Shown here piece after piece: positions 744-22,239 of a stretch of DNA of 35,957 nucleotides (within the stretch, counting starts at the first letter, position 1; each line of letters opens with the position of its first letter). The notes under the pieces are model-generated. The model had not been told where the DNA came from and searched no databases. It worked only from the letters and a program-made list of their open reading frames with translations. The DNA comes from an uncultured Clostridiaceae bacterium. Its GTDB lineage: Bacteria; Bacillota; Clostridia; DUPQ01. A program made the position numbers and the translations under genes. The DNA is taken from the NCBI GenBank assembly GCA_964475455.1, contig CAYYXJ010000006.1, positions 1 to 35,957 on the forward strand, in the 5' to 3' direction.

Positions 744-1631
744 CTACCGGGAGTATTTATCCTTCCAAATCGATAGATCCAGTCCTGTTATATGCTGGAG
801 CTTTAGAACATCCTCTTTATATGCCTCAAATATTTCCCTGCATAGAATTGGATTCTTCTCCGATTTCAAATGCTCACCTTTTGAGTATACTATCTTATTG
901 GCTTTTTCAAGGAATTTTATTCGTAATTTTGTAGGTATTGCTGTTTTTATTCTTTGCGGTACTATTCCAATCAGCTTTCTTAGCATAACCGTCGAACGGG
1001 ATTGCTTGCTGATTATGGTTTTATTCTTCCATACGTCAATCTTAATCCCGGGTTCAAATTCAAGATTGAGAAACCTAAAAATACTTGACACGGTACCAAA
1101 AGTATCATTTATAAAATCATCAAAGAGCACAAAAATAAGATTCTCCACAGGATACCTTTCAATAAACCATGAAACCTGTCTTCCGTAAAGACCATGGGAA
1201 AAATACTCTGATGTGTCAGGGTTCTTTTTAAACAACTCATAATCCCTGTGAAAAACATTGGCTATTTCTGTTTCGGATTCTGATGCATTTTTTCGCTTCA
1301 TGTAGAATTGTGAATAAAATCGGTCTACCGGATTCCTAAGCATAATAATTATTTTTATATCACTTCCCAGGGTATCGAGCATTCGCTGTACATATGCTTC
1401 GTTGGTCATATAGAGAACCGTAAAATCCATGATATATTTTTCTTCAGATGCCCCTTTATACAGTTTGCTATAAGCTTTTAGCCCTTTGTCAAAATACCTG
1501 TTGAAAAACATAGGTTCCTTTATACCGCAGTTATATATTTCGCTATGCTGTTTCAGGATGGAATACAGACTGGTTGTTCCGGCCTTTTCTGCTCCCGGAC
1601 ATATCAGGTTTGGTAATCTTTCCTTCATCAT
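744..1631 (-). CDS. PAPS-type sulfotransferase (canonical Sulfotransfer_1/3-like)
   Basis: ORF 744..1685 carries a 5'-PSB loop CPGAEKAGTTSL and a 3'-PB element RNPVDRFYS. I moved the start to ATG 1631 (MMKERLPNLI), which lies just after the TAG stop (1638-1636) of the upstream gene and is preceded by AGGAAG. The track start at 1685 is a TTG 50 nt inside the upstream gene. Confidence 0.8.
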   Translation of the reverse strand: MMKERLPNLICPGAEKAGTTSLYSILKQHSEIYNCGIKEPMFFNRYFDKGLKAYSKLYKGASEEKYIMDFTVLYMTNEAYVQRMLDTLGSDIKIIIMLRNPVDRFYSQFYMKRKNASESETEIANVFHRDYELFKKNPDTSEYFSHGLYGRQVSWFIERYPVENLIFVLFDDFINDTFGTVSSIFRFLNLEFEPGIKIDVWKNKTIISKQSRSTVMLRKLIGIVPQRIKTAIPTKLRIKFLEKANKIVYSKGEHLKSEKNPILCREIFEAYKEDVLKLQHITGLDLSIWKDKYSR

Positions 1632-1635
1632 CTTC

Positions 1636-2520
1636 CTATTTTCTTTTTTTCCATACATCAAAATTTCTACCGGTGATTTTTTCAAGTAATTTTGTGTCCT
1701 CTGCTATTATTCCTTTTACATCATCTGATATAGAAATTTCCTTATAATAATCAATAGCCTTGTAATTTCCAATTTTCCTTTTTAATCGACCGGCAATTTT
1801 CTTGATGAATCCCGCTCTCCAATTTCTTTTTCTGATATACGGAAGGCTCTTCACCTTATTGCTTAATTTATCGATGCCAATATGTCTTGAAGCAATTATT
1901 GTTGGATTGGTATTAACATTTAAATCAAAATCAAAATCAGGATCTATTCCCAAAAAGCAGCAAACATCCCTGATTGAGGAAGTCATATCCACAATGAATT
2001 CTTCAAGCACAATAATCTTGATGTTTGCAACAGGAAACCTGTCGATATAATTCTTGATTGCTTCTCCATATAGACTGCTTTTAATATAATTGAACCCATG
2101 CGGGTGCCCATAGATTTCCAGTGACCTGGATTGTCTGTCCTCAATATTCCTATTAAAAGAATCATCCCATGAAAGGTTTTCATGAAGCAGCCTTTTTTCC
2201 ATGAAGTAATGGGATTTTAGTCTTCTAACAGGCTCCCTGACCATAAAAATGAATTTAACATCATCCCCCGACAATGACTCTATCCTCTCAGGTATAGAAT
2301 CATCAACTGCATATGCCGGTGAAAAGTCCACTGCTAAATTGCAGGAATCTTGTATCCCAAGTTTTTTCTTATAAAATTCAATATCCTTTTTATAATCAAG
2401 CAAAAAATAATTAATTTCCTTTGAATATGGCCTGCAAACTTCCGGATGCTGTATAAGTAAGTTGAATAAGGTCGAAGTTCCACATCTTGTAAATCCCGGA
2501 CATATAACATATCTGCTCAT
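1636..2520 (-). CDS. PAPS-type sulfotransferase, second canonical copy
   Basis: 5'-PSB-like CPGFTRCGTSTL and 3'-PB REPVRRLKS. ATGA start/stop overlap with the upstream GT2 gene. Confidence 0.75.
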   Translation of the reverse strand: MSRYVICPGFTRCGTSTLFNLLIQHPEVCRPYSKEINYFLLDYKKDIEFYKKKLGIQDSCNLAVDFSPAYAVDDSIPERIESLSGDDVKFIFMVREPVRRLKSHYFMEKRLLHENLSWDDSFNRNIEDRQSRSLEIYGHPHGFNYIKSSLYGEAIKNYIDRFPVANIKIIVLEEFIVDMTSSIRDVCCFLGIDPDFDFDLNVNTNPTIIASRHIGIDKLSNKVKSLPYIRKRNWRAGFIKKIAGRLKRKIGNYKAIDYYKEISISDDVKGIIAEDTKLLEKITGRNFDVWKKRK

Positions 2521-3557
2521 TTATTTAACCTTGCTTCCTTAAAAACTGAATATAAATGAATCGGCAGTAAAATTACTGGCAATGTAATCCTGTTGAAAAA
2601 ATAAATGGACCGAACAAAAGTCATGGTTCTTTTTTTAATTTTATCTGTGTTTACCTTTCCTGATTCAAGCATGTTTTTTACCATATCAGCCAGAACAAGG
2701 GTTTTCTCAATTCTCTCCCCTAAGGGGATTTTTTCTGTGGAAGTTACTTCCCTGTAACATGAAAAAGCCAGAGCTCTGAATTCCCACTGTTTTATTGCCG
2801 ATTCTATTACTCCTTCAGGCAGCCTGCTTTTTACAAGAACCCTCATTTTTTCATTGACAACCTTCCCTACGGTATCAACTGAATTCGGATCTCTTCTTGA
2901 TGACAGACTTGATGAGTACTTAACATAATTATATAGGGGCAGTCTGATATAACTGACATGGTTGCAATAAAGTAAATATTCCATATTAAAGACAATATCA
3001 CTATTGACTATGGCTTTTTCAGAAAATTCAATTTTATTCCCGGAAATAATTTTTGTCTTATACAACTTGCTCCAGCATGCAGAAAGAATATTATATTCAG
3101 CAAGAAACGCCATCAACTTATCTGAACTGCCCTCTTCATTCAATAATGCCGGTTCAAAATCCTCCAGATATCTCTCCAACCCTTTGTTCCCTGAAATTTC
3201 CTTACAACCGCAAACCGCAAGGTCCGCCCCTTTCGATTCCAAAGTTTCCTTTAATTTCATTAGATAATCAATTTCACACCAATCATCAGCATCAATAAAT
3301 GTGGCATATTCACCGGTCATTTGGGAAATAGCTGAATTCCTGGCTGTACTTACATTGCCGTGTTCCATCTGCAATACAATTATCCTGGAATCCAAATTGC
3401 TGTAGTTTTTCAGGATTCTCACCGAATCATCAGTAGACCCGTCGTCGACTGCTATAACTTCAAATTCCCTGTATGTTTGGTTCAAAAGACTTTCAATACA
3501 TCTCTCCAAATATTTTTCTGCGTTATAGACCGGAAGTATTATACTGATTTTTTTCAT
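2517..3557 (-). CDS. Family 2 glycosyltransferase (GT-A fold)
   Basis: ISIILPVYNAEKYLERCIESLLNQTY, VIAVDDGSTDDS and FIDADD (DxD) motifs. TAATG overlap with the upstream gene. Confidence 0.85.
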   Translation of the reverse strand: MKKISIILPVYNAEKYLERCIESLLNQTYREFEVIAVDDGSTDDSVRILKNYSNLDSRIIVLQMEHGNVSTARNSAISQMTGEYATFIDADDWCEIDYLMKLKETLESKGADLAVCGCKEISGNKGLERYLEDFEPALLNEEGSSDKLMAFLAEYNILSACWSKLYKTKIISGNKIEFSEKAIVNSDIVFNMEYLLYCNHVSYIRLPLYNYVKYSSSLSSRRDPNSVDTVGKVVNEKMRVLVKSRLPEGVIESAIKQWEFRALAFSCYREVTSTEKIPLGERIEKTLVLADMVKNMLESGKVNTDKIKKRTMTFVRSIYFFNRITLPVILLPIHLYSVFKEARLNK

Positions 3558-4651
3558 TATGTTCCAAACCTCTCATTTGTTAGCATGGTATACAATTCCT
3601 TCAGTTTATCCATATAAGTATTCTTGTCATATTTTTCATCAATGAACCTTTTTGCAGCCAGTGATATCCCGTCAATCAGTTTTTTATTTCTCACCAAATA
3701 CTCAAGTTTTCTGACGAAAGCCTTATAGTCACCGGATTCGCAGGTCCATCCATTGACACCGTCTTCAATGATTTCAGGGATAGCCCCTGTTGCCATAGCC
3801 AATATCGGTGTTCCAACCGACATAGCCTCAAGAACAGTCAGAGGGAGCCCTTCATACCTGGATGGCAAAATAAGCAAATCAAAGGACTTCATCCATTCAT
3901 AAGGATTTTCACAATAACCTTCAAATTTAATATTCAACCCGTTGGATAGCTCAATCAGCATATCTTTCATACTGCCTTTTCCCACTACATGTATCATAGT
4001 ATGTTCCCACAGGGTTGATTTTTGTAACTTAAGTTCACTTAAGAAAGCATCAAGGCCCTTCTGGTATTCAAGCCGACCGATGAATCCGATTCTGAATTTA
4101 TCTTTGTCACTGAAAACAACTCCTTCGCCCGCTCTGCTATTATTGAATTTCACATCTGTAAAGTTATCCATGACAATGACACCTTTTATCCTATTGAAGT
4201 AAGGTGCATGCTTCATATAATAATCTCGTGTAAGTCCTGAACAAAAAATGTTTGCCGAATATCTGGTTCTGAAAATACTGTCCACGAGTTTATGCAGACC
4301 CGTTTTTTTTAAGTACGGATAAGAATTATGTATATGAGATACTATAATAGGTTTCTTCTTTAACCCGGGAACAGCAATATATGATATAAGGGAAGCCTTG
4401 TTATCGTGTGCATGGATAATATCAGGTTTATAATCATCTGCAATTTTTCTGATTATCCCGGATTTCAAGGAAGACAAAGCAACATATTCAACACCCATCT
4501 CTTCAAGAGTTTTTCTAATGGGTCCGTCCGGTGAAGTATAAATAATGTCAAACCCCTCTTGAGTCAGGTTTTTACATATTTCAACTGCAATTTTTTCTGC
4601 GCCCCATAGATTATTCGAACCCAGCACATGTATTATCCTAATTTTTCTCAT
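3557..4651 (-). CDS. Family 4 (GT-B) glycosyltransferase
   Basis: C-terminal EGLPLTVLEAMSVGTPILA block (E-x7-E region) and N-terminal MRKIRIIHV...GAEK typical of GT4. Confidence 0.8.
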   Translation of the reverse strand: MRKIRIIHVLGSNNLWGAEKIAVEICKNLTQEGFDIIYTSPDGPIRKTLEEMGVEYVALSSLKSGIIRKIADDYKPDIIHAHDNKASLISYIAVPGLKKKPIIVSHIHNSYPYLKKTGLHKLVDSIFRTRYSANIFCSGLTRDYYMKHAPYFNRIKGVIVMDNFTDVKFNNSRAGEGVVFSDKDKFRIGFIGRLEYQKGLDAFLSELKLQKSTLWEHTMIHVVGKGSMKDMLIELSNGLNIKFEGYCENPYEWMKSFDLLILPSRYEGLPLTVLEAMSVGTPILAMATGAIPEIIEDGVNGWTCESGDYKAFVRKLEYLVRNKKLIDGISLAAKRFIDEKYDKNTYMDKLKELYTMLTNERFGT

Positions 4652-5777
4652 CCAAACACCTATTATATAGTCTCAACATTTCCTTAACCAACTGGCTTTT
4701 TTCATACTCAGGAACTTTATCCCTATTGAAAGTTCCCATAATTTGCCTTTTATCAGAATCATCAATTAACTTAACAATTTCATTACGAAATTCATTGGCA
4801 TCGTCAAATGGAACAAGGCAGCCACCCTTTCCATCGGCAATAAGATCCCTGTTACCGCGTATATTAAAACAAACAATGGGAAGCCCCGTTGCCATTGCTT
4901 CGATAATATTTACCGGAAGCCCTTCCTGTCTTGATGCTGATACATATATATCCGAATTTTTCATCAGCCTCTTTATATCAGTACGGAATCCGAGAAAATG
5001 AACTTTATCCAAAATCCCCTTTTTAAAAGCAATTTCTTTATATTTATCCGTGTAAGAACCTTCTCCCGCAAGAATCAGATGAACCTTTGTTTCAGTATTC
5101 AGATCAGCAACCAACCTTATCAAAAAGTCCTGATGCTTTCTATAACTCATTTCGCCTGCAAACACTAAAACAATGCTGTCATTGGGTATATTCAGTTCAT
5201 TTCTAAATGCCATTCCATCGGGATCCGAGTAATTTATAAACTGCTCTGTGTCAATTCCAACCCCGTTCATTTTTTCCACCCACCTGCATTTAAAAGTTTT
5301 TGCACGATGATAATCCTCATCATTTATAGTAATTATCAAATCCGTGAGCTTTGCCAGAATTCTCTCAGCCGGATAATAAAACATCCAGTTTACTGCTGAA
5401 GCACCATCGAAAAAGTGAAAACCATGTGCGGTGTAAATAACCTTACTTCCTTTTTTCCTTGCTTTTCCGGCAGCAAGCCTGGCCAATGCTCCGCCTATGG
5501 GGGTATGGCAATGTATAATGTCATAATTCCCTGAATCAATGATTTTCTTTAATTTAAAATATGCTTTTATATTTCGGGGATGAATAGGTATTCTATGAAA
5601 TGAAACATCAAAGAAAACATCACACCCGGGAATAACACAATCTTCCTTATCTTTATAGTCATTTGATGCACAGACATTGACTTCATATCCTTTTGCTTTC
5701 AACTCAATAAAAAACGGAATATGAAATAAATTTATATGAAGTTTTACCTTGGATGCCACATACAGTACCTTTTTCAT
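4638..5777 (-). CDS. Family 4 (GT-B) glycosyltransferase
   Basis: EGLPVNIIEAMATGLPIVC block. Start placed at ATG 5777 (MKKVLYVASK) rather than 5819, because the extra 14 codons overlap a promoter-like TGgTATATA element. Confidence 0.8.
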   Translation of the reverse strand: MKKVLYVASKVKLHINLFHIPFFIELKAKGYEVNVCASNDYKDKEDCVIPGCDVFFDVSFHRIPIHPRNIKAYFKLKKIIDSGNYDIIHCHTPIGGALARLAAGKARKKGSKVIYTAHGFHFFDGASAVNWMFYYPAERILAKLTDLIITINDEDYHRAKTFKCRWVEKMNGVGIDTEQFINYSDPDGMAFRNELNIPNDSIVLVFAGEMSYRKHQDFLIRLVADLNTETKVHLILAGEGSYTDKYKEIAFKKGILDKVHFLGFRTDIKRLMKNSDIYVSASRQEGLPVNIIEAMATGLPIVCFNIRGNRDLIADGKGGCLVPFDDANEFRNEIVKLIDDSDKRQIMGTFNRDKVPEYEKSQLVKEMLRLYNRCLDEKN

Positions 5778-5809
5778 ATTGTTGCAATCCTTTTCTATAC
5801 AAAACATAT

Positions 5810-5818
5810 TATATACCA
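5810..5818 (-). promoter_or_regulatory. Extended -10-like element (TGgTATATA) in the 80-nt gap upstream of GT4 gene 4638..5777
   Basis: The reverse strand reads aaTGgTATATAat about 35 nt upstream of ATG 5777. No good -35. Motif only. Confidence 0.3.
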
Positions 5819-5899
5819 TTCATCCGGATTAGTTTTCTGATACAAAAAACCTTATCAGCATCAACCTTAAATATTCCCGGTTTCACCAGGTCTTTTTTG

Positions 5900-6409
5900 T
5901 TAAGTTGAACTATTATTAATACTTCTTCGAACGCCGATATAAATAGTGAGCAAAATCATAAAATAAGCCAGAACCATCCCAAGGCTGTCAAAAATTATGT
6001 CCTTTAGCTGAAAACCTCTTCCATCAACAAAAATCTGAATGGTCTCATCAGCCATTATAATAATAAAACCGTACAAGAAGGCATAAGCCGGGAAATTTAA
6101 TATTCTTTTAAAAGATTGCAAGGCCCTGCTGACCAGGATATAAAGGACGAAAAATTCAAAAATATGTGCAGCATTTCTTATGTCGTCCACTAAATTGACT
6201 TCTATGTATCTCATCATACGTGTAGGAGTCACATCGCCATAAATGGTCTTGGTAATTTTAATGAATATTTCTACAAAAACTCCTGATTGCTCAAGTGATT
6301 CGGTGGCTGTTTGAAGAGAATTATAAAAAATAAACCCGGTCCAAAGTATCCCGGCCAGTATGAATGCAATATCAATTATTTTATTTAAGCTTTGTTTTTT
6401 CCTTTTCAT
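5900..6409 (-). CDS. VanZ-like family membrane protein
   Basis: Four hydrophobic segments and the VanZ-type block ADETIQIFVDGRGFQLKDIIFDSLG (DE..Q....R......D...G). ATGA overlap with the wzx stop. Confidence 0.65.
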   Translation of the reverse strand: MKRKKQSLNKIIDIAFILAGILWTGFIFYNSLQTATESLEQSGVFVEIFIKITKTIYGDVTPTRMMRYIEVNLVDDIRNAAHIFEFFVLYILVSRALQSFKRILNFPAYAFLYGFIIIMADETIQIFVDGRGFQLKDIIFDSLGMVLAYFMILLTIYIGVRRSINNSST

Positions 6410-7902
6410 TGAAACTCCTTGTTTATTTCCTGATTATAACCAATGCTACCCCTGTTCAGTATGTCCCATTTTTTCTTTAGATATTTAAAATATATTCCAA
6501 AATAAATCAAAAGCCATAACACCCCGAATATAATGGATTCCGCAATCTGTCCCAGCAATAAATCCAATTTAATATATCTCCCCAGCAAAAAGAATATGGC
6601 TCCGAAAGCAATATTGACAACACTGATATAACCCATGCTTTTCCAAGGAAATATCACCTTGAATTCACTTCCGGTTAACCTGACGGTGGCTCCAAGCTGA
6701 AAAAGAGCAAATATTGCGAATGATATCAAAGTTGCTATGGCAGGTCCAACGAACCCTAATAATGAATACAAAGCAAGACTTATTACAATATTCGCACCAA
6801 TTGACAACAATGTACTGTAAAAAATGTATTTTGTTTTTCCCATGGAATTTATAATTATATTAAATGTAGTAACATTCAATATAAGAATTAAACTGTAAAT
6901 TCTGAACACTGTAACACCGGGGAGATATTTGGGTGAATATAATATTGAAATAATCTCAGGGGCATAAACAATCAAAGCTACCGTAAAAAAGCACATGAAT
7001 ATATATGATAATTTTATTGATTCTCCCCATAATTCAATAGCCTTGCCTTTTCTTTTTTCCTTGATCAACAGTATTATCCTTGGAAGTAATGCAGATGCAA
7101 TTGAAATTCCCACAAGATTCAAAGGCAGTTCCCTGGCTGCATTTGTATATATTGCAAGGTTTTCTGTGGAAAAAAATCTACCGATAATAAGTTTGTCTAT
7201 ATTTTTATTAATGCTGCCCAGGGTCGAAGACAAACCAATTGGAATTGAATATTTAAGCATGTTCAACATGAGTTTGGAATTAAAGTTCATTACAAATCCA
7301 CCGGAAACATAGGAGGCGATAAAATATACAATCAATGCGAAAACAGCTTCGATGACAATGAACATTATCATATAAACATAAAAATCAAGCTGCAGTATCA
7401 GGGTAATTGCAACAGCAATAAGAATCAGCAAACTGTGGGATACTTTGTAAAATATCAGCCATGTAGTCTTATTGTAAACAATAAGTATGCTTGTTATTGA
7501 ATTAAATACTGTCCTGGCCCATGGAAACAGCGCAATTATCAGTATAATCTTTCCCAGCATTGGATTTGAAAAATAATTTATAAGAAAAGGCTTCATCACC
7601 AGAATTATTATGCCTGTCAAAACCCCGAGGACTGTCGTGGAAAGCAGATTCATATAAAGAAACTGCCGCTTATCCAGATCAGTGGTTCCCCTTGTGAGAA
7701 AATATGAAATACTCGCAGGGATACCAAGCATTGCAAGGGGAGCAACAATCTCTGCGATTATATAAATCTGTGAATATGTACCGTACTCTCCCAAAGTTCT
7801 GAATCGTGAAAGAAGCATGGCAGAAATCATACCTATCAAAAGGGAACTCATCTGAGAAATTGTCAGTTTAAGGCTGTCTTTACCTATGTTTCCTCTATCC
7901 AT
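6406..7902 (-). CDS. wzx: Wzx-type oligosaccharide flippase (MOP superfamily polysaccharide biosynthesis protein)
   Basis: 498 aa, roughly 12-14 hydrophobic segments and no soluble domain. The N-terminal pattern LLIGMISAMLLSRFRTLGEYGTYS is typical of polysaccharide flippases. Confidence 0.75.
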   Translation of the reverse strand: MDRGNIGKDSLKLTISQMSSLLIGMISAMLLSRFRTLGEYGTYSQIYIIAEIVAPLAMLGIPASISYFLTRGTTDLDKRQFLYMNLLSTTVLGVLTGIIILVMKPFLINYFSNPMLGKIILIIALFPWARTVFNSITSILIVYNKTTWLIFYKVSHSLLILIAVAITLILQLDFYVYMIMFIVIEAVFALIVYFIASYVSGGFVMNFNSKLMLNMLKYSIPIGLSSTLGSINKNIDKLIIGRFFSTENLAIYTNAARELPLNLVGISIASALLPRIILLIKEKRKGKAIELWGESIKLSYIFMCFFTVALIVYAPEIISILYSPKYLPGVTVFRIYSLILILNVTTFNIIINSMGKTKYIFYSTLLSIGANIVISLALYSLLGFVGPAIATLISFAIFALFQLGATVRLTGSEFKVIFPWKSMGYISVVNIAFGAIFFLLGRYIKLDLLLGQIAESIIFGVLWLLIYFGIYFKYLKKKWDILNRGSIGYNQEINKEFQ

Positions 7903-7903
7903 T

Positions 7904-9016
7904 TCAATCCTTCATTCCTATATAAAGCTCTTCAAGCTTACTTGCTTCATTTTTAATATCAAATCCTTTTATTTTCAACTTTTCTAATGCTGAGCATCTC
8001 TCATAGGGAGTTTTCAGTACTTTTTGTATTTCATCCGCCCAATTCCCAGCACTTGATTCCAGTTTTAATATCTTTAATAAGTCTGCAGGATTTGATTCCT
8101 CTGTCAGATTATCTGAAACGATGCATCTAAGACCGGAGGCCTGTGCTTCAATTAAAACCAATGGCAATCCTTCATTAAAAGAGGTAAGGACAAACAAGTC
8201 AAAGACCTGATAAAGGCTGACAACATCATCCCGGCATCCCAAAAAGAGAACCTTGTCCTCAATATTCAGGCTCTTAGCTTTTTCCCTCACGGATTCCATC
8301 AGTCTGCCTTGACCCACGAGAACAAGCTTTGCCTCGGGAACCACTTCCAATAGTCTATTGAATACTTCAATCATAAATCCATGGTTCTTGAAAGGAAGGA
8401 AGTTCCCTACATTTCCCAGCACAACATTATCTTTAAGCCCTAAACTTTTTCTGACTTTTAGACGCTCATCCGGATTGTATTCAAATGCCTCAATATCTAT
8501 GGCATTATTTATCACTGTAACTTTTCCTTTTTCACTTTTCTTTATACCATAAAGGATGTCTCCGGCTATCTTTGAACAGGCAAAATAATGTGTTGATATC
8601 AGATTCAAAAATCCAATGATACTTTTACTAAAAAACTTCAAAACCGGATTATGTGGTAAATAAGAATTGTGACTGTGCGATATCCTGATCTTTGCACCAC
8701 TCAATAAAGCCGTAAAAAGTATTAATACATTTCTGAAATTCATATGACTGTGCACTATTCTATATCTGTTCTTTCTAATTATCTTACTTAATCTAACATA
8801 GAATTTAAAACTATCTGTCAGGGCACCTATCTTGTGAATCTTCCCTCCCAAAGATATTATTTCATCATCAAAAACATCCTGTTCAGATGCTTCTACAGCA
8901 AAATCAAACTGAACTCTGGACCTGTCAATATTCCTGTAATAATTCATAAGCATCACAGGCACTCCACTCCGGTTCATACCCATAAATACATGTAAAACCC
9001 TGATAGGTTCATTCAT
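7904..9016 (-). CDS. Family 4 (GT-B) glycosyltransferase
   Basis: EGLPLVLIEAQASGLRCIVSD block. The start overlaps the upstream stop by 8 nt, with a GGAGG 9 nt upstream. Confidence 0.8.
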   Translation of the reverse strand: MNEPIRVLHVFMGMNRSGVPVMLMNYYRNIDRSRVQFDFAVEASEQDVFDDEIISLGGKIHKIGALTDSFKFYVRLSKIIRKNRYRIVHSHMNFRNVLILFTALLSGAKIRISHSHNSYLPHNPVLKFFSKSIIGFLNLISTHYFACSKIAGDILYGIKKSEKGKVTVINNAIDIEAFEYNPDERLKVRKSLGLKDNVVLGNVGNFLPFKNHGFMIEVFNRLLEVVPEAKLVLVGQGRLMESVREKAKSLNIEDKVLFLGCRDDVVSLYQVFDLFVLTSFNEGLPLVLIEAQASGLRCIVSDNLTEESNPADLLKILKLESSAGNWADEIQKVLKTPYERCSALEKLKIKGFDIKNEASKLEELYIGMKD

Positions 9017-13268: not shown

Positions 13269-13273
13269 CAGCC

Positions 13274-14998: not shown

Positions 14999-15063
14999 CC
15001 GAACACTTGTTGTCAGCTCAAGAATAAACTTTCAAATCCACACCATTTTGCAACATACAGTTA

Positions 15064-15072
15064 ATTATACCA
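15064..15072 (-). promoter_or_regulatory. Extended -10 element TGGTATAAT upstream of the ABC exporter / FkbM pair
   Basis: The reverse strand of the 86-nt gap 14999..15084 reads tttTGGTATAATtaac. Motif only. Confidence 0.3.
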
Positions 15073-15084
15073 AAAATCTGCGCA

Positions 15085-16266
15085 TTACCTGCCAATAAAC
15101 ATTTTTATGAGTTTTCTTGCAATCCCATAAAAATCAACTTTTCTTCCAGCAATTTCTTTGTTATATCTTCGTACAAATCCCATGGGAATTTCTTTATTAT
15201 TGAATTCAACACCAAAAATTGCAGCAATGCATTTGCACAAACTAATCTGATTCATCTTGTGGTTAGCAATAATCTGATTTGCAAGATTTCGTTTGTCTTC
15301 GTCGGTCAATAGAATCCTCTGGTCCAGAGCGACATCAGGAAGTGGTTTTTTATTGAATAATTCCCCATCATAACCGAAATATCTCCTGGCAATTTCTCTG
15401 TTCCCCGAATCAAATACCTGTTGATATTCCTTACTCAATAACATACTGACCTGGGGGCTCTCAATGGCGGTATCCACAACCATTCTATTGAGCTGATGCC
15501 TTGCCCTGTAAGCATTGGGATCAGCTAAATTGTAAAGATTTGAATTAATTATCCGCATGAACTCACACTGTTTTACATTGAGTGAAGTATTCAATCTCAC
15601 TTCTTCCATGGAAAACCTGGGAATCCCAATTGTTTTACAAAAATCACTGATAATATCATGCTCATACAAACTGCTTTTATCAAAAATTCTCAGTATGATA
15701 TTCTCTATACCAAAAACATCCTCCCACAATTTAAGTTTTTTATTGAAATCATAAAAATCCGCATTTGCAAAATCTGTAAGCCTGCTTATTACTTTGGCCT
15801 CATTGTTTTTAACTGAAGTTGAATACCTGCTGCAAAGAAGCTCACTTTGTTCCCTGAGATATAAAACAATCTTAACATTTTCGCTCAATCCACTGAGTAA
15901 ATCCTTCAATCTTGCTATTTCCTCGGGGTATTTAAGTGATTGATAGCAGTGCTCATTGGACAAAATGACATTTTTACCATTAAATCCACCTATTTCAGCC
16001 CTAAGAGCCTTATAAAACCTTTTCCTGAATGAAATAATCTGTTTCCTGGTTTCAGTTTTGCATATACTCCTCATTCGGGATGTTCTGTTTTCATTCATTG
16101 CATAGTTAGCTAAATAAATATTATTGGGATTAATCTTCCTTGGTTCTTCAGGAACAAGGAATCCTGCATCATAAAGGCGGCCTGCATTCTTCGCCAAATA
16201 ATATTGGAGAGTTGTTGTTCCGGTCTTCGGACTTCCTATATGCAAATAGATAGTTTCCCTGCTCAT
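15085..16266 (-). CDS. Divergent sulfotransferase-like protein (P-loop core plus conserved C-terminal tail), pair 1 copy b
   Basis: HIGSPKTGTTTLQ (5'-PSB-like) and YLREQSELLCSRY (R-x7-S, 3'-PB-like). Start moved to ATG 16266 (MSRETIYLHIG), preceded by GGAAGGA with a 7-nt spacer. Paralog of 16298..17509. Confidence 0.55.
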   Translation of the reverse strand: MSRETIYLHIGSPKTGTTTLQYYLAKNAGRLYDAGFLVPEEPRKINPNNIYLANYAMNENRTSRMRSICKTETRKQIISFRKRFYKALRAEIGGFNGKNVILSNEHCYQSLKYPEEIARLKDLLSGLSENVKIVLYLREQSELLCSRYSTSVKNNEAKVISRLTDFANADFYDFNKKLKLWEDVFGIENIILRIFDKSSLYEHDIISDFCKTIGIPRFSMEEVRLNTSLNVKQCEFMRIINSNLYNLADPNAYRARHQLNRMVVDTAIESPQVSMLLSKEYQQVFDSGNREIARRYFGYDGELFNKKPLPDVALDQRILLTDEDKRNLANQIIANHKMNQISLCKCIAAIFGVEFNNKEIPMGFVRRYNKEIAGRKVDFYGIARKLIKMFIGR

Positions 16267-16297
16267 ATTCAATTCCTTCCATCGGATTGTTGGAATT

Positions 16298-17509
16298 TTA
16301 CCTTTTGTAAACTTTTTTTATAATTGAAACCAATTTTTTCCGTATTTTTTTCAGAACACGCCTGAAGCCACCCCTTTGGTATCTGCTTACCTTATTCATG
16401 TCAAGTGATTCAATGAATTCCCTGGAAATTAATTCATCATTATACTTAACATTGAAAATAGCTGCTATACATTTACACAAAACTTCGTTACTGTTCCTGT
16501 ATTTATCTATTATTTCTGATGCCATGGTTCTTTTTTCATCTTCCGAGAGAATTTCGCATTGAGAAAGGCTTTTATCAGATAATTTTTTCTTATCAAAGAG
16601 ATCTTTTTCGAAACCAAAATATCTTTGAAACAATTTCACATTCTCCTGCTCATATACGGTTTGGTAATCCTTGTTGATAAGAACCGATAATTCCGGACTG
16701 TCGGGTTTTATACCCTCAACCATGTCAACAAGACCATTTCTGATGACATTGATTCTGTTTTTACTGTAATAAGGGATATATTCATTTATTAAACGCAAAA
16801 ATTCACATTGCGCAGCATTGAGTTTCTCATTCAAATACTGCGGAACAAATCCGACTTTCTCCAAACCTAAAGCCATTGTAAAATCACTGACTATATCATT
16901 GTCAATCATCTTACTCCTGTCAAATATACGCAGAATAATATTCTCAATACCAAAAACCTTTTCCCATAATTTCAACCGCTCGTTATAATTAAATACATCA
17001 TTACCTGCAAATTCATTTATATCCGGCATTTCAAATGTTTTTCCGCCTCTCATCCTTGTAGAATATAAACTGCAAAGCATATCAGCCTGTTCCCTTATGT
17101 AGACAATAATTTTAATATCAACATTCAAATCACTGAACAAATCCTTGAGTTTTTGGATTTCATCCTGTGTTTTAAGGTTTTCGTAGCATTGTTCACTTGA
17201 AAATATAATCTTGGAACCGGTGAAATTCCTTATTTCAGCTGACAGCTTATTTTTAAACTTTTTTCTAAAAACCCTCAACTGTCTTTCGGTGTAAATGCCG
17301 TTTCGGATACTGACTTCAGTTATTGTGGTTTTATTTATACAATAGTTTGCCAAAAGTGTATGATTTGCCAGATATCTGCGGGATGAAGCAGGTACAAGAC
17401 ATCCCTTTTTGCTTAGCAAATCACTGTTTGAGGCCAAATAATTTTGTATGGAAGTAGTTCCTGTCTTAGGTGTTCCTATATGTATATATATTGTTTTTTT
17501 CTGTGTCAT
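16298..17509 (-). CDS. Divergent sulfotransferase-like protein, pair 1 copy a
   Basis: HIGTPKTGTTSIQ and YIREQADMLCSLY. Shares LKLWE(K/D)VFGIENIILRIFD and CKCIAAIF blocks with 15085..16266. Confidence 0.55.
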   Translation of the reverse strand: MTQKKTIYIHIGTPKTGTTSIQNYLASNSDLLSKKGCLVPASSRRYLANHTLLANYCINKTTITEVSIRNGIYTERQLRVFRKKFKNKLSAEIRNFTGSKIIFSSEQCYENLKTQDEIQKLKDLFSDLNVDIKIIVYIREQADMLCSLYSTRMRGGKTFEMPDINEFAGNDVFNYNERLKLWEKVFGIENIILRIFDRSKMIDNDIVSDFTMALGLEKVGFVPQYLNEKLNAAQCEFLRLINEYIPYYSKNRINVIRNGLVDMVEGIKPDSPELSVLINKDYQTVYEQENVKLFQRYFGFEKDLFDKKKLSDKSLSQCEILSEDEKRTMASEIIDKYRNSNEVLCKCIAAIFNVKYNDELISREFIESLDMNKVSRYQRGGFRRVLKKIRKKLVSIIKKVYKR

Positions 17510-17524
17510 TAACTCTCCACATAT

Positions 17525-18604
17525 TTACTTGAATTTTTTTAATATTCCGGTGATTTTTTCACTGAACTTAACAAGTGAAAACTCCTCCGCCCTTTTCCTA
17601 ATCACTGTTTTATCCGGTTTCATATTCATTACTTCCAAAACCGCTTCATGTAGTTCCGAAACAGACCCTGGTTTTATAACTCTTCCTGTAACACCGTCAA
17701 TGTTATGATAACTGGTACCTGTCCCCAGTTCAGTGGATATCACCGGAACTGAACAGGCCATTGCCTCTACAGCAACCAAGCCAAACGCCTCTGCCTTGTC
17801 AGTTGAAGGCATTAGAAGCAAGTCAGCACTGCTGTAATAAAAAGGCAGGTCATCATAATGGGCATCATTGATCTTTGTTATCCTGGGATATAGGTTATTT
17901 TCCCTGATGAACTTTTCATCCTTTTTTTTGTAAGCATCCCTGGAAACAACCAAAAGTCTGTATTTTTCATCCAGTTTTTGCAGACATTCAAGAATATGGG
18001 TGAAACCTTTGTACCTTGACATTCTGCCAACGAAAAGAAGGATTTTGTCCTCTCCGGTTTTCAAGATTCTGTTCCTGTAATTATTCTCTCTGTAATAGAA
18101 ATGGTCAACATCAATACCCAAAGGAACTACTGTACATTTATCCTTGAAGTATTTCAAAACTGAAGATGTGTTTATTATATTGGGATTTGAAACAAGTATT
18201 ATATCGGCATCCCTTAGAAACCTTCTGGTAATTGTCATTTGGTAGAATCTGCCTATAATTTTGAACTTGGTTACATCAGCATGAAAATATACGATTTTAT
18301 TTTTAAAATCCGATTTATATAGTTCCGGTTGAAAAGATGGATAATGATAAAAGACAGTTTCATTGGTTTTTGCAAGTTCCCTGAGTGTTTTTTTGAAAGC
18401 ACCGGACCATCTGACAGGGCCAATTCTAAAGGCTGTGCCCAGTCTCAGGCTTTTTACATTCTTATATTCTACAATCTCAGTTTTCTTAGTATTGCTGTAA
18501 GTCAGTACCTCGACTTTTTCGGGATTGAGTGCATCAAGCATCTGCTTTAAAACCACCTCAACACCGCCTACATCTGAAGCCTCCCGCTTATTTATTACTA
18601 TCAT
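17525..18604 (-). CDS. Family 4 (GT-B) glycosyltransferase
   Basis: EAFGLVAVEAMACSVPVISTELGTG block. ATGA overlap with the upstream gene and an AGGTG RBS. Confidence 0.8.
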   Translation of the reverse strand: MIVINKREASDVGGVEVVLKQMLDALNPEKVEVLTYSNTKKTEIVEYKNVKSLRLGTAFRIGPVRWSGAFKKTLRELAKTNETVFYHYPSFQPELYKSDFKNKIVYFHADVTKFKIIGRFYQMTITRRFLRDADIILVSNPNIINTSSVLKYFKDKCTVVPLGIDVDHFYYRENNYRNRILKTGEDKILLFVGRMSRYKGFTHILECLQKLDEKYRLLVVSRDAYKKKDEKFIRENNLYPRITKINDAHYDDLPFYYSSADLLLMPSTDKAEAFGLVAVEAMACSVPVISTELGTGTSYHNIDGVTGRVIKPGSVSELHEAVLEVMNMKPDKTVIRKRAEEFSLVKFSEKITGILKKFK

Positions 18605-19752
18605 TTCACACCTAAAAGCCTTTCATATACCTCCAGGGTTTTTTCTGCACTCTTTTTCCAAGAAAAAGTCAATGCATGCTTTATTCCTTTTTCGATCATA
18701 GCATTCCTAAGTTCATCATCATCAAGCACCCTTGCGATATTATCGGCAATGCCTTTTATGTCAGTAGCATTTGAATAAAGTGCAGCATCACCGCCCGCTT
18801 CTTTCAAGGACGAATTATCTGCTGTAACTACCGGGGTACCGCTGGCCATGGATTCAATTACAGGTATTCCAAACCCCTCATACAATGACGGAAAAACAAA
18901 AACATCTGCTGCTCCGTAAATAAGATTCTTATCCTCTTCATCCACATATCCCAGGCGAATTATATTTTTTGAAGACGGCGAAGTCTTTATTTTATTCAAA
19001 GTTTCTTCTGCCTTCCATCCTATTCCTCCGGCAATGACCAGTTTGTAATCCCTTTTAATTTCATCCCTTTGCAGATTATATGCATCAACAATCGAAATAA
19101 TGTTTTTCCTTGGTTCTATGGTTCCCAGATACAAAATGAATTTTTCAGGCAAATTATATTTCATTCTCAGACCTGCAAGAGTATCGTCATTTATATTTTG
19201 AGCTTTTTTGAAAAATTCATAATCAATACCGGGATTTACAATGCTTATTTTACTTTGGTCTATATCGTGGAATTTCAATAAATCAAGCTTCGAATTTTCC
19301 GAAACGGTTATTATTGCATCTGCCCTTCTTACGGACCTCTCCATCTCCCTGTTCAATATATACAGTGTCTTGTAGCTTACGGTTTCAGGCATGATTTTAT
19401 AGACCATATCATGGATTGTTATTATCACTTTTTTCTTCCTTGAAATGGATGGTGCAGTAAAATTAAAGTAGTGATAAATGTCTCCTTTTGGGAAAAACCA
19501 ATCATAGTTGATCGGCAGCAAACCAGTCAGCAACCGGTATACCTTTGAAGGAATGAATTTGTTGATATATAGGTTATCCGGTTTTATATCGCTCAGTTTT
19601 TCAGCAACATGATTTTTCCCCAAGAAATCAAAACACATCCCCATGACTTCTATATCGTCTTGATTTAAATTGTTTATAATATTGTAGGTATACCAGCCTA
19701 TCCCGGACCGTTTACCGACAAGTGGTTGCAGATCAAAACAAATTCTGGGCAT
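18601..19752 (-). CDS. Family 4 (GT-B) glycosyltransferase
   Basis: EGFGIPVIESMASGTPVVTADNSSLKE block. Start moved to ATG 19752 (MPRICFDL), preceded by AAGGCGG with a 7-nt spacer; the track start at 19758 is a TTG. Confidence 0.8.
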   Translation of the reverse strand: MPRICFDLQPLVGKRSGIGWYTYNIINNLNQDDIEVMGMCFDFLGKNHVAEKLSDIKPDNLYINKFIPSKVYRLLTGLLPINYDWFFPKGDIYHYFNFTAPSISRKKKVIITIHDMVYKIMPETVSYKTLYILNREMERSVRRADAIITVSENSKLDLLKFHDIDQSKISIVNPGIDYEFFKKAQNINDDTLAGLRMKYNLPEKFILYLGTIEPRKNIISIVDAYNLQRDEIKRDYKLVIAGGIGWKAEETLNKIKTSPSSKNIIRLGYVDEEDKNLIYGAADVFVFPSLYEGFGIPVIESMASGTPVVTADNSSLKEAGGDAALYSNATDIKGIADNIARVLDDDELRNAMIEKGIKHALTFSWKKSAEKTLEVYERLLGVK

Positions 19753-19765
19753 ATTCAAACCGCCT

Positions 19766-21406
19766 TTATCTTATTTTCAATGCTTCATTAATATAGTTTT
19801 CAAGCTTAACTAATATTTGAAGTCCATCACTTTCTTCAAGGTCATTCATCTTTTTTTTAACAAAATCATGCATGCATGATTTTATGCTGTCATTGGACTT
19901 ATTAAAAGCTTCAATAAACATTTTACTATATTCTTCATCATATTTTATCATTGGGTTTTCATCGTCTTTATAATTCAACGGATATTTGATGCCGAAGGTC
20001 AGCCCAAGCCACAACAAATCAAATAAAGAAAGCTTTACAACCATTCTCATGCGCTTGCCTGACATTGAATATTTATTCCCCGGAATTTGGGTTATTGCAT
20101 CTATATCCCCGTTGTATCTTCTGTCATTCAATTTGCCGCCAAAAATCAAAGGTTGTTCTTTATTAATGAATTCAATGATCTCAATGGCCTGTGAAGAGAC
20201 ACTTTTGTTGATTCTTGGTATTTCAAGCTCACACAGCTCCCCCGTTGGTATTCCAAGTTTCATAATAAAATAGCCGACGGGACCGAACTCATGGGTCAAT
20301 GTTTCCTCAAATTTATAAACCGATATGCATTTTTTCCCAAATATCATAATCGCCCTTATCAGTCTTCGGAAATAAATATTGGAATAGACCATCAAAAGCC
20401 TTTTTTTGCTGAAAGAATCACCCATTCTAACTGCTTGCTGATAACCGGATGAAGCATAACCAGGAATTGAACGCACACAGTAAAGTATGTCGATTTTGGC
20501 ATCCGGCATAAGAGTTTTTATGAGCTTTTTAAAAACCTTAAGTTCATTGAAATGAAACCCGCATATACCTTCGCCATAGAAAATATAAGTTTCCCGGCGG
20601 CATTCTTTTACCCCTTTGCACAATGCAGAAAGATTCCTCATATTATACCGGGCAACTTCATCCTTATCATGTCCGGACACAACATGCCAGTAGATTTTAT
20701 CCGGTTTCTTATGAACCAGGCTCTTAAGCGGAACAGAATGATTGTCCGAACCCCAATTTGTCCTGTATTCATGTGAATTTTTATTAAGCCATTCCCTGTT
20801 GCGTGATAAAAATACCTGTATTGAAGTGGATGCGGTTTTGTCCATTCCCATTTGAACAACAACTTTTTTGATACCGGAATTTGAATAATGTTTCATGAAG
20901 TTTAAGATCCATGTCTTTTTTTTCGATTTTATCCTTTCAAGTGAATCGTTCGGTTGATTATTATCTAAACCGAGAAAATAATTGCTTATTCTGTGAAAAA
21001 TCTCCAGCTCATCCCCATTGGTTGTGTTTTGAATTTTTTCAAGGATAAATTCATGGAAAACACCTTTTAAAAAGTCATTCAGTTTGTCATAGGCTCTGGT
21101 GCAATCATTGTAATACACTTCATCATAAACAGGTTTTAAATCCTCCGCTTCCCATGTATTGGCTGTATAATCTATACCAAAATTGTTCTTTAGCCAGAGG
21201 ATGTCAGGCTTTGCCCTTTCAATTATTTTTTCATTGATATCATCAGAAAGCCTGAATCTGACACCCGTAATTTCCTTCAAAGGGAATATATCCTTAAGTT
21301 GTCTATACTTGTTTCTAATTCCTTTGTTAATTGCAGGATACTTTTCATTGATATATTCCATTATTTCAATGGCATTTTTCGATAATGCTGTATTTTCCCT
21401 GTGCAT
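19766..21406 (-). CDS. Divergent sulfotransferase-like protein, pair 2; the ORF is [tail of upstream paralog] + [core] + [tail]
   Basis: The core has QMGMDKTASTSIQ and YCVRSIPGYASSGYQ. The first ~185 aa (SKNAIEIMEYINEKYP...DILWLKNNFGIDY...) repeat the ORF's own C-terminal tail (SSQAIEIIEFINKEQP...DLLWLGLTFGIKY...). No Shine-Dalgarno precedes ATG 21406. Confidence 0.5.
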   Translation of the reverse strand: MHRENTALSKNAIEIMEYINEKYPAINKGIRNKYRQLKDIFPLKEITGVRFRLSDDINEKIIERAKPDILWLKNNFGIDYTANTWEAEDLKPVYDEVYYNDCTRAYDKLNDFLKGVFHEFILEKIQNTTNGDELEIFHRISNYFLGLDNNQPNDSLERIKSKKKTWILNFMKHYSNSGIKKVVVQMGMDKTASTSIQVFLSRNREWLNKNSHEYRTNWGSDNHSVPLKSLVHKKPDKIYWHVVSGHDKDEVARYNMRNLSALCKGVKECRRETYIFYGEGICGFHFNELKVFKKLIKTLMPDAKIDILYCVRSIPGYASSGYQQAVRMGDSFSKKRLLMVYSNIYFRRLIRAIMIFGKKCISVYKFEETLTHEFGPVGYFIMKLGIPTGELCELEIPRINKSVSSQAIEIIEFINKEQPLIFGGKLNDRRYNGDIDAITQIPGNKYSMSGKRMRMVVKLSLFDLLWLGLTFGIKYPLNYKDDENPMIKYDEEYSKMFIEAFNKSNDSIKSCMHDFVKKKMNDLEESDGLQILVKLENYINEALKIR

Positions 21407-21417
21407 TTCAAGGTTGA

Positions 21418-22239
21418 TTAACTTGCAGGCAAACCTATTTTATCTATGAAGTAACCAACCGGTCCATAAATGTGATTAACAGCATCTTCAAACTTGTATA
21501 CTGATAACCTGTCTTTTCCAAAAACCTTCACAGCATTTTTAATTCTTTTTTCATAAATTCCGGAATAAATATTCACTGTGTCGTCACAATTCTGAAAGCG
21601 ACCGGTTTTCATTGCCTGCTGATATGCCGAAGAAGCATACCCGGTATTTGACCTGGTGCAATACATCAACTTAATCCCGGCCTCCGGCATAAGGGCTTTG
21701 AGCAAATCCCGGAATCTCATGAATTCTTTTTGTGTGAAGCTGCATATTCCTTCACCATAAAAAATATATGTTTCAAATGGACACGCCCTTATACCTTTGC
21801 ACAAAGAAATGAGATTTCTATAATTATATTCTGCAATCTTTCGTTTATCATATCTTCTCAATATATGTTCCTGTATTTTTTCAGGCTGTTCCCTTAGTAG
21901 ACTCATTATTGGAACAGAATGGTTTTCAGTACCCCAGTCGCTTTTATAATCAGCCGAATGACTGTGCAACCAGTCCTGATTTTCCACGAGAAAATGCTGA
22001 ATTGTTGTTGAGGCTGTTTTATCCATTCCGATTTGTATAAAAACCCGTTTAATCCCGTTATTGGCATATGATGCCAGATATCTTTTGGCATTATATGTTT
22101 TAAAGTACTCTTGTATGCATTTTTCTTCACTTTTAGGCATACCGAAAAGCATGAATTTAAGATTCATAAGTGGATAAAATATTCTTTTTGATAAAACACT
22201 CCTGAACCTCTTGAAAAAAATTGATACAGCTTTCTCCAA
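21418..22239 (-). CDS. Divergent sulfotransferase-like protein, pair 2 core only (tail displaced into the next ORF by a frame change)
   Basis: QIGMDKTASTTIQ and YCTRSNTGYASSAYQ. It ends at ...VGYFIDKIGLPAS, where the paralog continues. Start tentatively set to the in-frame TTG at 22239, 10 nt after GGAGGGG. The track start at 22419 would sit 5 nt from the divergent sortase gene and adds a Cys-rich, non-protein-like extension. ATG 22167 is an alternative start. Confidence 0.5.
   Translation of the reverse strand: MEKAVSIFFKRFRSVLSKRIFYPLMNLKFMLFGMPKSEEKCIQEYFKTYNAKRYLASYANNGIKRVFIQIGMDKTASTTIQHFLVENQDWLHSHSADYKSDWGTENHSVPIMSLLREQPEKIQEHILRRYDKRKIAEYNYRNLISLCKGIRACPFETYIFYGEGICSFTQKEFMRFRDLLKALMPEAGIKLMYCTRSNTGYASSAYQQAMKTGRFQNCDDTVNIYSGIYEKRIKNAVKVFGKDRLSVYKFEDAVNHIYGPVGYFIDKIGLPAS

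Follow-up and report, generated by a model that had tools for sequence, protein, structure and literature searches.

The synechan cluster (xss) of Synechocystis sp. PCC 6803 is of the Wzx/Wzy type and combines two sulfotransferases with eight glycosyltransferases (PMC8205485), and the wps-1 cluster of Actinoplanes missouriensis, predicted to be of the Wzx/Wzy type as well, carries two sulfotransferases and a methyltransferase (PMC13390465). In bacteria, sulfated glycans are regarded as rare. According to papers of 2021 and 2026, sulfated glycans of bacteria are known only from cyanobacteria (PMC8205485, PMC13390465); sulfated glycans in the capsules of a few marine Gram-negative bacteria have also been described, and a paper of 2026 on the sulfotransferases of gut bacteria deals with small metabolites and not with glycans. 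For Firmicutes or Clostridia, our literature search turned up neither a pathway for sulfated polysaccharides or glycolipids nor a sulfotransferase cluster. The Nod-factor system of Sinorhizobium meliloti comprises the sulfotransferase NodH, the ATP sulfurylase/adenosine 5'-phosphosulfate (APS) kinase NodPQ and the ATP-binding cassette (ABC) exporter NodIJ; its single sulfotransferase adds one sulfate to a backbone made by the GT2-family glycosyltransferase NodC, and the exporter is of the ABC-2 type. Here we describe a stretch of 35,957 nucleotides from an uncultured Clostridiaceae bacterium (the whole of contig CAYYXJ010000006.1; hereafter the window), in which a 22-kb gene run contains six open reading frames (ORFs), ST1-ST6, with the motifs of sulfotransferases that use 3'-phosphoadenosine-5'-phosphosulfate (PAPS). 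With this locus, the question of sulfated glycoconjugates in a Clostridia-like Gram-positive anaerobe takes a concrete and testable form.

With moderate confidence, we interpret the run as two adjacent, separately conserved glycoconjugate modules, cassette A (13274-22419) and cluster B (1-12293), both of which would draw on PAPS from genes elsewhere in the genome. The most likely outcome is a pair of sulfated glycoconjugates, one of which is highly sulfated; the product of cassette A is probably a type of heavily sulfated sugar compound that has yet to be described from Gram-positive bacteria. Between positions 744 and 22419 every ORF lies on the minus strand, with junctions ranging from a 50-nt overlap to a 138-nt gap, and the G+C content of the window is low (34-44%). 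Pfam identifies seven glycosyltransferases in the run (one GT2 and six GT4), five in cluster B and two in cassette A. A sequence-only reading of this DNA had proposed a same-strand glycan-biosynthesis run of a Gram-positive-like host with seven glycosyltransferases, a Wzx flippase, an FkbM methyltransferase, an ATP-grasp enzyme and six ORFs carrying both PAPS motifs at a set spacing; all of this was borne out, the ATP-grasp enzyme being of the TupA type and the host Clostridia-like and sortase-bearing. It did not mention the ABC exporter encoded at 13274-14998, which is central to the two-module reading.

The first PAPS-binding element, the P-loop-like 5'-phosphosulfate-binding loop, reads KAGTTSL in ST1 (744-1685; residue 34), RCGTSTL in ST2 (1636-2520; residue 12), KTGTTTL in ST3 (15085-16272; residue 16), KTGTTSI in ST4 (16298-17509; residue 15), KTASTSI in ST5 (19766-21406; residue 190) and KTASTTI in ST6 (21418-22419; residue 134). 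The second, the R-x7-S element of the 3'-phosphate-binding site, reads RNPVDRFYS (residue 117), REPVRRLKS (95), REQSELLCS (140), REQADMLCS (139), RSIPGYASS (312) and RSNTGYASS (256), respectively. Six-frame translation of the window gives 34 ORF segments of 150 aa or more, and the combined pattern occurs in these six only. The loop aligns to the loop GAAKCGTSSL of the sulfotransferase structure 3rnl; its Lys is present in ST1 and ST3-ST6 and is invariant in the divergent families (K15 in alignment A1, K21 in alignment A2). The R-x7-S element aligns to LRNPVDRAFS of 3rnl and to the consensus of the ST1 family; in alignments A1 and A3, R139 and S147 show little or no variation, and R143 and S151 are invariant in A2. 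A chance coincidence of motifs was also considered and is ruled out by homology statistics, with between-family E-values down to 1e-32. That all six proteins belong to the sulfotransferase superfamily is well supported, and PAPS-dependent transfer is predicted for them by homology.

ST1 and ST2 are canonical enzymes. Both pass the 22-bit cutoff of PF00685 (Sulfotransfer_1), with 54.8 bits (E = 1.2e-14) and 29.4 bits (E = 6.7e-7), respectively. Their matches in the PDB are 3rnl (6.8e-22 for ST1, 2.3e-18 for ST2) and heparan sulfate 3-O-sulfotransferases (3-OST-3, 7.9e-16, for ST1; 3-OST-5, 7.9e-14, for ST2), and ST1 alone also matches NDST1 (~1e-6). ST1 has 844 relatives at E <= 1e-10; PF00685 or PF13469 is found in 120/120 of the matches listed, the closest of which is 60% identical and is named sulfotransferase [Clostridia bacterium]. 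The relatives are 295 aa long, so the first 18-19 codons of the ST1 ORF, from the TTG at 1685, are probably surplus; the true start is likely the Met at 1631 or 1628, giving ~295 aa.

The other four proteins fall below the Pfam thresholds: ST3 and ST4 give only sub-threshold matches to Sulfotransfer_3 (E = 0.035 and 0.23), ST5 and ST6 give none, and a scan of all six proteins against NCBIfam yielded no match. ST3-ST6 are linked to the family of ST1 by profile-profile comparison. They form two divergent families. ST3 and ST4 are 40% identical, and 14/55 relatives of this ST3/4 family match PF00685 individually. The sole PDB match of the family profile is 3rnl (E = 0.0015); the alignment spans the R-x7-S segment IKIIVYLRrQddylvS and 'ILIMLRNPVDRAFS', with the P-loop segment second and weak. 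With hhalign the ST3/4 profile (A1) matches the family of ST1 at 98% (E = 2.5e-13, 256 columns). ST5 and ST6 have cores that are 51% identical (E = 1e-81). At 99.9% (E = 1.9e-32; 305 columns), the match of the ST5/6 family to the ST3/4 family extends into the helical C-terminal domain; its match to the ST1 family, at 95.5% (E = 1.5e-8), has the P-loop, GEGIC/gEaS and R...S columns aligned.

The AlphaFold2 models built from the family alignments have predicted local distance difference test scores of 93.9 for ST4 and 90.4 for ST5 (residues 170-546). In Foldseek searches the ST4 model is closest to 3rnl (2.4e-5) and 3-OST-5 (2.4e-4), and the ST5 model to 3rnl (3e-4), the CurM sulfotransferase, retinol dehydratase and 3-OSTs. 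For the two models together the best matches are 3rnl, 3-OST-5/3/1, the CurM sulfotransferase, retinol dehydratase and cytosolic sulfotransferases, with probability 1.00. A non-sulfotransferase fold for the divergent ORFs, which the sequence-only reading had named among the results that would refute it, was thus not found. ST3 consists of the core followed by a helical C-terminal domain, and such an extra domain of ~150 residues is common to ST3-ST6.

The catalytic base is Glu in heparan sulfate sulfotransferases and His in cytosolic sulfotransferases. A Glu that follows the second core strand, and that we take from the 3-OST literature to be this base, is invariant or nearly so in both divergent families; the invariant Glu of the ST5/6 family (GEGIC) aligns to the consensus Glu of the ST1 family. 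The closest solved relatives of the six proteins, 3-OST-1/3/5, NDST1 and 3rnl from Alicyclobacillus acidocaldarius, have the 5'-binding loop, the Arg and Ser of the 3'-binding site and, putatively, the position of the catalytic acid in common with them. They differ in sequence (ST4 and ST5 are only 9-16% identical to them), in the extra C-terminal domain of ST3-ST6, which they lack, and in single residues of ST1 and ST2.

Those residues are among the points that weigh against six active sulfotransferases. The P-loop Lys is replaced by Arg in ST2 (TRCGTSTL), and ST1 and ST2 have Asp where 3-OST-3 (MEKTPSYF) and 3rnl (GEASVFY) have the catalytic Glu. E106 of ST4 reaches the catalytic column only transitively, via the ST5/6 family, and not in the direct alignment of the ST3/4 and ST1 families. 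The Foldseek TM-scores of the ST4 and ST5 models are modest, 0.34-0.41 on the query and about 0.5-0.57 on the target, and P-loop kinases follow close behind the sulfotransferases in the E-value ranking; the fold evidence is supportive and, for these two reasons, not decisive alone. One could therefore suppose that ST3-ST6 only have the fold that sulfotransferases and P-loop kinases have in common and are kinases, enzymes using another donor or non-catalytic proteins, so that ST1 and ST2 alone would transfer sulfate. The failure of all four to reach the Pfam and NCBIfam thresholds would fit, as would the presence of PFKFB, PSTK and zeta toxin among the Foldseek matches (E ~1e-3) and the atypical loop of ST5 and ST6, DKTAST instead of the usual PKxGTT, with both Pro and Gly absent. 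We consider this very improbable. The top structural matches and the only PDB matches of the sequence profiles are sulfotransferases; in both families, the PAPS elements keep their Lys, Arg and Ser, and the putative catalytic position its acidic residue, with little or no variation; hhalign connects both families to a bona fide sulfotransferase family; and four related loci have genes of these families right next to cysQ, cysD, cysNC or cysC. P-loop kinases in particular were rejected, as ST3-ST6 have no Walker A motif (GxxxxGK[ST]), match sulfotransferases best and show linkage to cysQ and cysNC.

The ST5 and ST6 ORFs have an unusual structure. Within the ST5 ORF, the N-terminal stretch (residues 1-145) is a homologue of the C-terminal domain (E = 8e-24), and residues ~170-546 form a complete ST5/6 module, whereas ST6 stops exactly where its C-terminal domain should start. 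Three-frame translation places a frameshift at about 21404-21422 on the minus strand, where 'GLPAS*' ends one frame and 'KLINLEMHRENTALSKNAIEIM' continues in another; a change of frame at 21407-21420 gives a reading colinear with the junction of core and C-terminal domain in ST5 itself and with P0084, an intact two-module homologue of 820 aa that is 50% identical. The N-terminal part of the ST5 ORF is thus the displaced C-terminal domain of ST6, and the six sulfotransferase ORFs that had been counted as six genes derive from five ancestral ones, ST6 and ST5 being one two-module gene split by the frameshift. The site lies outside any homopolymer run, and the frameshift could be a real mutation or an assembly error. 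In addition, the ST6 ORF start at 22419 is probably too far upstream, its first ~60-84 codons being non-coding, because the homologues start at or slightly upstream of 22167 and P0084 and P0092-P0095 align from 'MNLKF...'.

Cassette A, which is rare and portable, reads, in order of transcription, ST6-ST5-GT4a-GT4b-ST4-ST3-ABC exporter, and thus has four sulfotransferase modules of two families. This order is kept in four other loci (L003, L004, L086 and L089) and, over the part that their contigs cover, in L091 and L088: ST6-like and ST5-like genes, GT4a, sometimes GT4b, two or three ST3/4-like genes and the ABC gene. At least five such metagenomic loci have the cassette without an in-cassette Wzx or Wzy gene. 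By tblastn, the exporter is 64-77% identical in every cassette locus. GT4a (18601-19758) is 52-74% identical overall, 61-74% over its full length in L003, L004, L086 and L089; in L091 it is found in two pieces (52-57%) and in L088 as its first 105 residues only. L003, L086 and L091 have GT4b (17525-18604) at 58-73% identity, and L004 and L089, which lack it, have only GT4a. The same tblastn search with the window proteins detected in the cassette A loci no relatives of ST1, ST2, Wzx, the fused membrane/TupA protein, VanZ, the other five glycosyltransferases or the FkbM-family methyltransferase. The gene of the latter (12432-13277; Methyltransf_21, E = 5.6e-18), which shares its first 4 nt with the end of the exporter gene, accompanies the cassette in this window only.

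The flanks of the cassette vary from locus to locus: genes for 6PGD and G6PD in L004, phage-defence and spore genes in L003, and genes for a GFO-family protein and a TIM-barrel protein, as in the window, in L086. The upstream neighbours in common are a GFO/IDH/MocA oxidoreductase and an AP_endonuc_2 TIM-barrel protein (L086 1-1731; window 24824-27704), and the sortase block of the window is absent from L086. Downstream, L086 has a PGM/PMM gene and then, two genes past the exporter, a partial MurJ-type flippase gene, not FkbM and cluster B, which points to the same chromosomal site with different downstream partners. The number of sulfotransferase modules per cassette is four in the window, L004 and L086 and five in L003 and L089; per glycosyltransferase, this amounts to 2.0 in the window and L086, 2.5 in L003, 4 in L004 and 5 in L089.

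The exporter is a half-transporter with fused transmembrane and nucleotide-binding domains (Pfam ABC_membrane and ABC_tran) of the ABCB/PglK/MsbA type. Over its full length (residues 12-560) it matches PglK, the flippase of lipid-linked oligosaccharides in Campylobacter N-glycosylation, with E = 1e-56. Cassette A resembles that system further in its presumably short product, its one or two glycosyltransferases and the lack of Wzy, and differs in that no cassette locus has a priming transferase or an oligosaccharyltransferase. A lipid-linked substrate does not follow from the match to PglK, because BmrA, MsbA and ABCB1/4 match equally well. The best PDB matches of GT4a are MshA (1.8e-23), GlgM and PimA/PimB, and those of GT4b are the sucrose-phosphate-synthase-like Tll1590, MshA and BshA; the NCBIfam and PDB matches of GT4b are to small-acceptor GT4 enzymes. 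By these similarities, the two cassette glycosyltransferases resemble enzymes that glycosylate small or lipid acceptors. Transmembrane segments are predicted neither in the sulfotransferases nor in GT4a, and in GT4b a single, marginal hydrophobic stretch stands out. The C-termini of ST3 and ST4 are long, basic, amphipathic helices (for instance '...RGGFRRVLKKIRKKLVSIIKKVYKR'), which could bind the membrane peripherally and would then fit a membrane-bound acceptor. The presence of ManC in L091 and L090 and of PGM/PMM in L086, beside cassette A or a variant of it, hints at GDP-mannose as the sugar donor.

Several relatives of the cassette adjoin genes of PAPS metabolism. In L003 the cassette block, with three ST3/4-like genes, is directly followed by a CysQ-type gene of the inositol-monophosphatase family, a CysD gene of the PAPS_reduct family and CysNC (GTP_EFTU and APS_kinase domains). 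In L089 an APS kinase gene (cysC) directly precedes the cassette block. A two-module sulfotransferase combining ST3/4-type and ST5/6-type modules is followed in L090 by ABC, CysQ, CysD, CysNC and ManC genes, and in L087 a protein of the same composition is encoded in a Wzm/Wzt/RgpF cluster that starts with CysNC. Linkage to cysQ, cysD, cysNC and cysC is the expected signature of PAPS consumers; CysQ in particular removes the product 3'-phosphoadenosine 5'-phosphate. No PAPS genes are present in the available sequence of L004 and L086. Among 80 distant loci of the ST3/4 type (~30% identity), cysD or cysN lies within 10 kb in four, an estimated ~10-fold over chance, with no control set behind the estimate. 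In L003 a Mem_trans gene of the auxin-efflux-carrier family (16921-17832) stands right after cysQ-cysD-cysNC; its product might be the sulfate importer of the L003 system.

In its predicted logic cassette A is close to the Nod-factor system: a small glycan modified in the cytoplasm by a soluble PAPS-dependent sulfotransferase, dedicated cysDN or cysC functions next to it, and ABC export. In relatives of the cassette, cysQ-cysD-cysNC or cysC stand beside the ABC gene or the cassette block. In contrast to the Nod-factor genes, cassette A has four or five sulfotransferase modules, GT4 enzymes and an exporter with fused transmembrane and nucleotide-binding domains, and in sequence the two systems are related at the superfamily level only.

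Cluster B is best understood as a Wzx-type heteropolysaccharide cluster in which ST1 and ST2, enzymes resembling heparan sulfate 3-O-sulfotransferases, would sulfate the repeat unit. All its genes are on the minus strand. Downstream of the fused gene for a polytopic membrane domain (residues 1-436) and a TupA-like ATP-grasp ligase (residues 487-724), termed Mem-TupA (10107-12293; ATPgrasp_TupA, E = 2.7e-51), are two GT4 genes (9009-10085, Glycos_transf_1, E = 2.4e-32; 7904-9016, E = 1.1e-23), the Wzx-type flippase gene (6406-7902; Polysacc_synt_3, 2e-19, and Polysacc_synt, 1.5e-18), a gene for a VanZ-like membrane protein (5900-6409; VanZ, E = 8.9e-19), two more GT4 genes (4638-5819, Glycos_transf_1, E = 5.2e-38; 3557-4651, Glycos_transf_1/Glyco_trans_1_4, ~5e-31) and the GT2 gene (2517-3557; Glycos_transf_2, E = 1.4e-38). 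ST2 and ST1 are followed by the 5' part of a gene for a GHMP-family sugar kinase (2-718; GHMP_kinases_N, E = 1e-12), which runs off the left contig end, so that cluster B continues past the window. The same arrangement was found in L092 and L093: Mem-TupA, GT4, GT4, Wzx, an extra gene, VanZ, GT4, GT4, GT2, an ST1-like gene and the GHMP kinase gene, then genes for an epimerase, a Gtf3-like glycosyltransferase and Glf. The position of VanZ is conserved in L092, where the GHMP kinase is 401 aa long and Mem-TupA (728 aa) has the same architecture. In the 15.7 kb covered, L092 and L093 have a single sulfotransferase, ST2 being without a counterpart in L092, and nothing of cassette A.

The membrane part of Mem-TupA has ~10 hydrophobic segments. 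It gives no Pfam match and a single sub-threshold match to TIGR04370 (E = 0.023, 13.7 bits against a cutoff of 40), and is a possible Wzy. Of the Wzx/Wzy operon that had been proposed, the Wzx part thus stands by Pfam, whereas Wzy is a candidate and neither a priming transferase nor a chain-length regulator is seen in the window. Like the xss and wps-1 clusters and related predicted ones of other cyanobacteria, cluster B sets Pfam-recognisable sulfotransferases beside many glycosyltransferases and a Wzx flippase. It differs from xss in its Clostridia-like context, in having no PCP/OPX, recognisable Wzy or priming transferase within the window, and in the fused membrane/TupA protein. Cassette A has no counterpart in xss; its sulfotransferases belong to other families, its exporter is of the ABCB type and it has 2-5 sulfotransferases per glycosyltransferase.

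At the level of the whole locus, several observations speak against two modules that each give a sulfated product. The window contains no cysC, cysD, cysN, cysQ or sat gene (tblastn with CysQ, CysD and CysNC, and Pfam on the remaining ORFs), as the sequence-only reading had stated. The frameshift may inactivate one or two modules of ST6/ST5. No priming phosphoglycosyltransferase or chain-length regulator (Bac_transf, WecA-type, Wzz/CpsCD) was found among the window ORFs; such genes may lie outside the window, given that cluster B is cut by the contig end at position 1, and the next 5 kb in L092 have no priming or chain-length gene either. Finally, the two modules are co-directional and separated by a 138-nt gap (12294-12431) without a convincing terminator, so that co-transcription and cooperation on a single product are possible; a scan for promoters and terminators gave counts near shuffle expectation and no informative boundary between the modules.

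The first two of these observations, together with the Arg for Lys in ST2, would fit a locus that is partly decayed or silent, that is, a horizontally acquired and degenerating cassette with no PAPS route and no polysulfated product, in which the PAPS genes that accompany the cassette elsewhere have been replaced by FkbM and cluster B. We regard such decay as improbable: the other 17 genes are intact, tightly coupled ORFs, both pieces of the split gene stay open, with a complete module retained in the ST5 piece, and the frameshift may be no more than an assembly error. PAPS genes, moreover, need not be linked, as seen in L004 and L086.

The last observation bears on the proposal of the sequence-only reading that the entire 22 kb is one operon for one multiply sulfated Wzx/Wzy surface polysaccharide, with a seven-sugar repeat carrying up to six sulfates as well as methyl and amide decorations. 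The genes are co-directional with overlapping or short junctions, no convincing terminator separates ABC/FkbM from Mem-TupA, the seven glycosyltransferases and six sulfotransferase modules are numerically compatible, and synechan xss sets a precedent for a Wzx/Wzy cluster with sulfotransferases (PMC8205485). We nevertheless find a single product rather unlikely. Cassette A has its own exporter and recurs in at least five other loci with different flanks and without cluster B genes; cluster B is syntenic with a one-sulfotransferase cluster and recurs without cassette A genes in the stretch available; the closest cassette relative, L086, continues after the cassette with PGM and MurJ-like genes, not FkbM and cluster B; and a Wzx flippase and an ABCB-type exporter would be redundant for one product.

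Under the two-module reading, cassette A may work as follows. Its GT4 enzymes would attach one or two hexose units (mannose, perhaps, with GDP-mannose as donor) to a cytoplasmic or membrane-bound acceptor; the soluble sulfotransferases of the ST3/4 and ST5/6 families, each module with a PAPS-binding core and a helical C-terminal domain, would then sulfate a different hydroxyl each, with PAPS on the cytoplasmic side; and the ABC exporter would carry the polyanionic product across the membrane. The comparisons show the family membership and fold of the sulfotransferases, the conservation of their motifs, the synteny and, in relatives, the linkage of the cassette to PAPS genes; from the gene content we infer the substrates, the number of products and the sulfation itself in this organism. 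The most economical reading is a short glycan on a lipid, polyprenol or small-molecule acceptor, sulfated at many hydroxyls; GT4a may also be processive and yield a sulfated homopolymer. As a more tentative proposal, which we would not call likely, cassette A could be a self-contained, horizontally mobile pathway of anaerobic Firmicutes for a glycoside or glycolipid whose mono- or disaccharide is sulfated at nearly every position; this small polyanion, similar to heparin, would be made by one or two GT4 enzymes, sulfated at four or five positions by two new sulfotransferase families with a dedicated cysQ-cysD-cysNC supply and exported by an ABCB-type transporter. We know of no bacterium in which such a class of nearly per-sulfated small glycans, or the architecture of cassette A, has been described. 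Being compact, with its 2-5 sulfotransferase modules per glycosyltransferase, the cassette could yield highly charged heparin-mimetic molecules and regiospecific enzymes for glycan sulfation.

The two divergent families extend well beyond this locus. A scan for the ST3/4-type motif HIGxxKTGT, based on an alignment of 17 sequences, confirmed at least 566 relatives in species-representative genomes. The 80 loci that were kept come mostly from Proteobacteria, and also from cyanobacteria and other phyla, and about a third of them adjoin glycosyltransferase, Wzm/Wzt or RmlB-like genes. The ST5/6 subfamily proper is rare, with 16 cluster representatives among 5.8 billion sequences. No close relatives were detected in 185,579 species representatives with two short ST5/6 peptide patterns, and a scan of metagenome contigs added one locus of 3 kb. 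In an exhaustive profile search, 7,777 representatives matched at E <= 1e-3, 521 of them at E <= 1e-30; judged by these profile matches, the ST5/6 family is a small part of a large superfamily that has no annotation and shares its core and C-terminal domain. Multi-module sulfotransferases appear to be a recurring architecture. Both families were unannotated and are here tied to sulfotransferases, and annotating them would change the reading of many glycan clusters. Among individual proteins, P0229 (1676 aa) and P0237 (1541 aa) have four sulfotransferase-like modules in one polypeptide, and in P0096 and P0098 an ST3/4-type module is fused to one of the ST5/6 type.

The remaining genes of the window encode, by Pfam, a sortase, two unknown membrane or secreted proteins, the GFO/IDH/MocA oxidoreductase, a dTDP-glucose-dehydratase-like enzyme, the TIM-barrel protein, two hemerythrin/PAS_10 paralogues, lipase-like, SEC-C and URO-D-like proteins and one or two extra TupA-like proteins. 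The sortase gene (22425-23183, plus strand) is divergent from cassette A and is followed by genes for a polytopic membrane protein and a secreted protein of 169 aa (24146-24655). At the C-terminus of the latter, '...IKHTGYDYN' is followed by a hydrophobic segment and then a basic tail, possibly an unusual signal for sorting by a sortase. The hemerythrin/PAS_10 paralogues are encoded in tandem (27812-30223, minus strand), one of them also having a DUF438 domain, and show no obvious tie to the glycan locus. At the other contig edge an ORF of 188 aa without a Pfam match (35264-35830, minus strand) adjoins a stand-alone TupA-like ATP-grasp gene (34264-35175, minus strand; Pfam, 6.7e-46), 22 kb from the fused TupA; this second TupA-like gene suggests that more glycan-amidation genes are present beyond the main locus.

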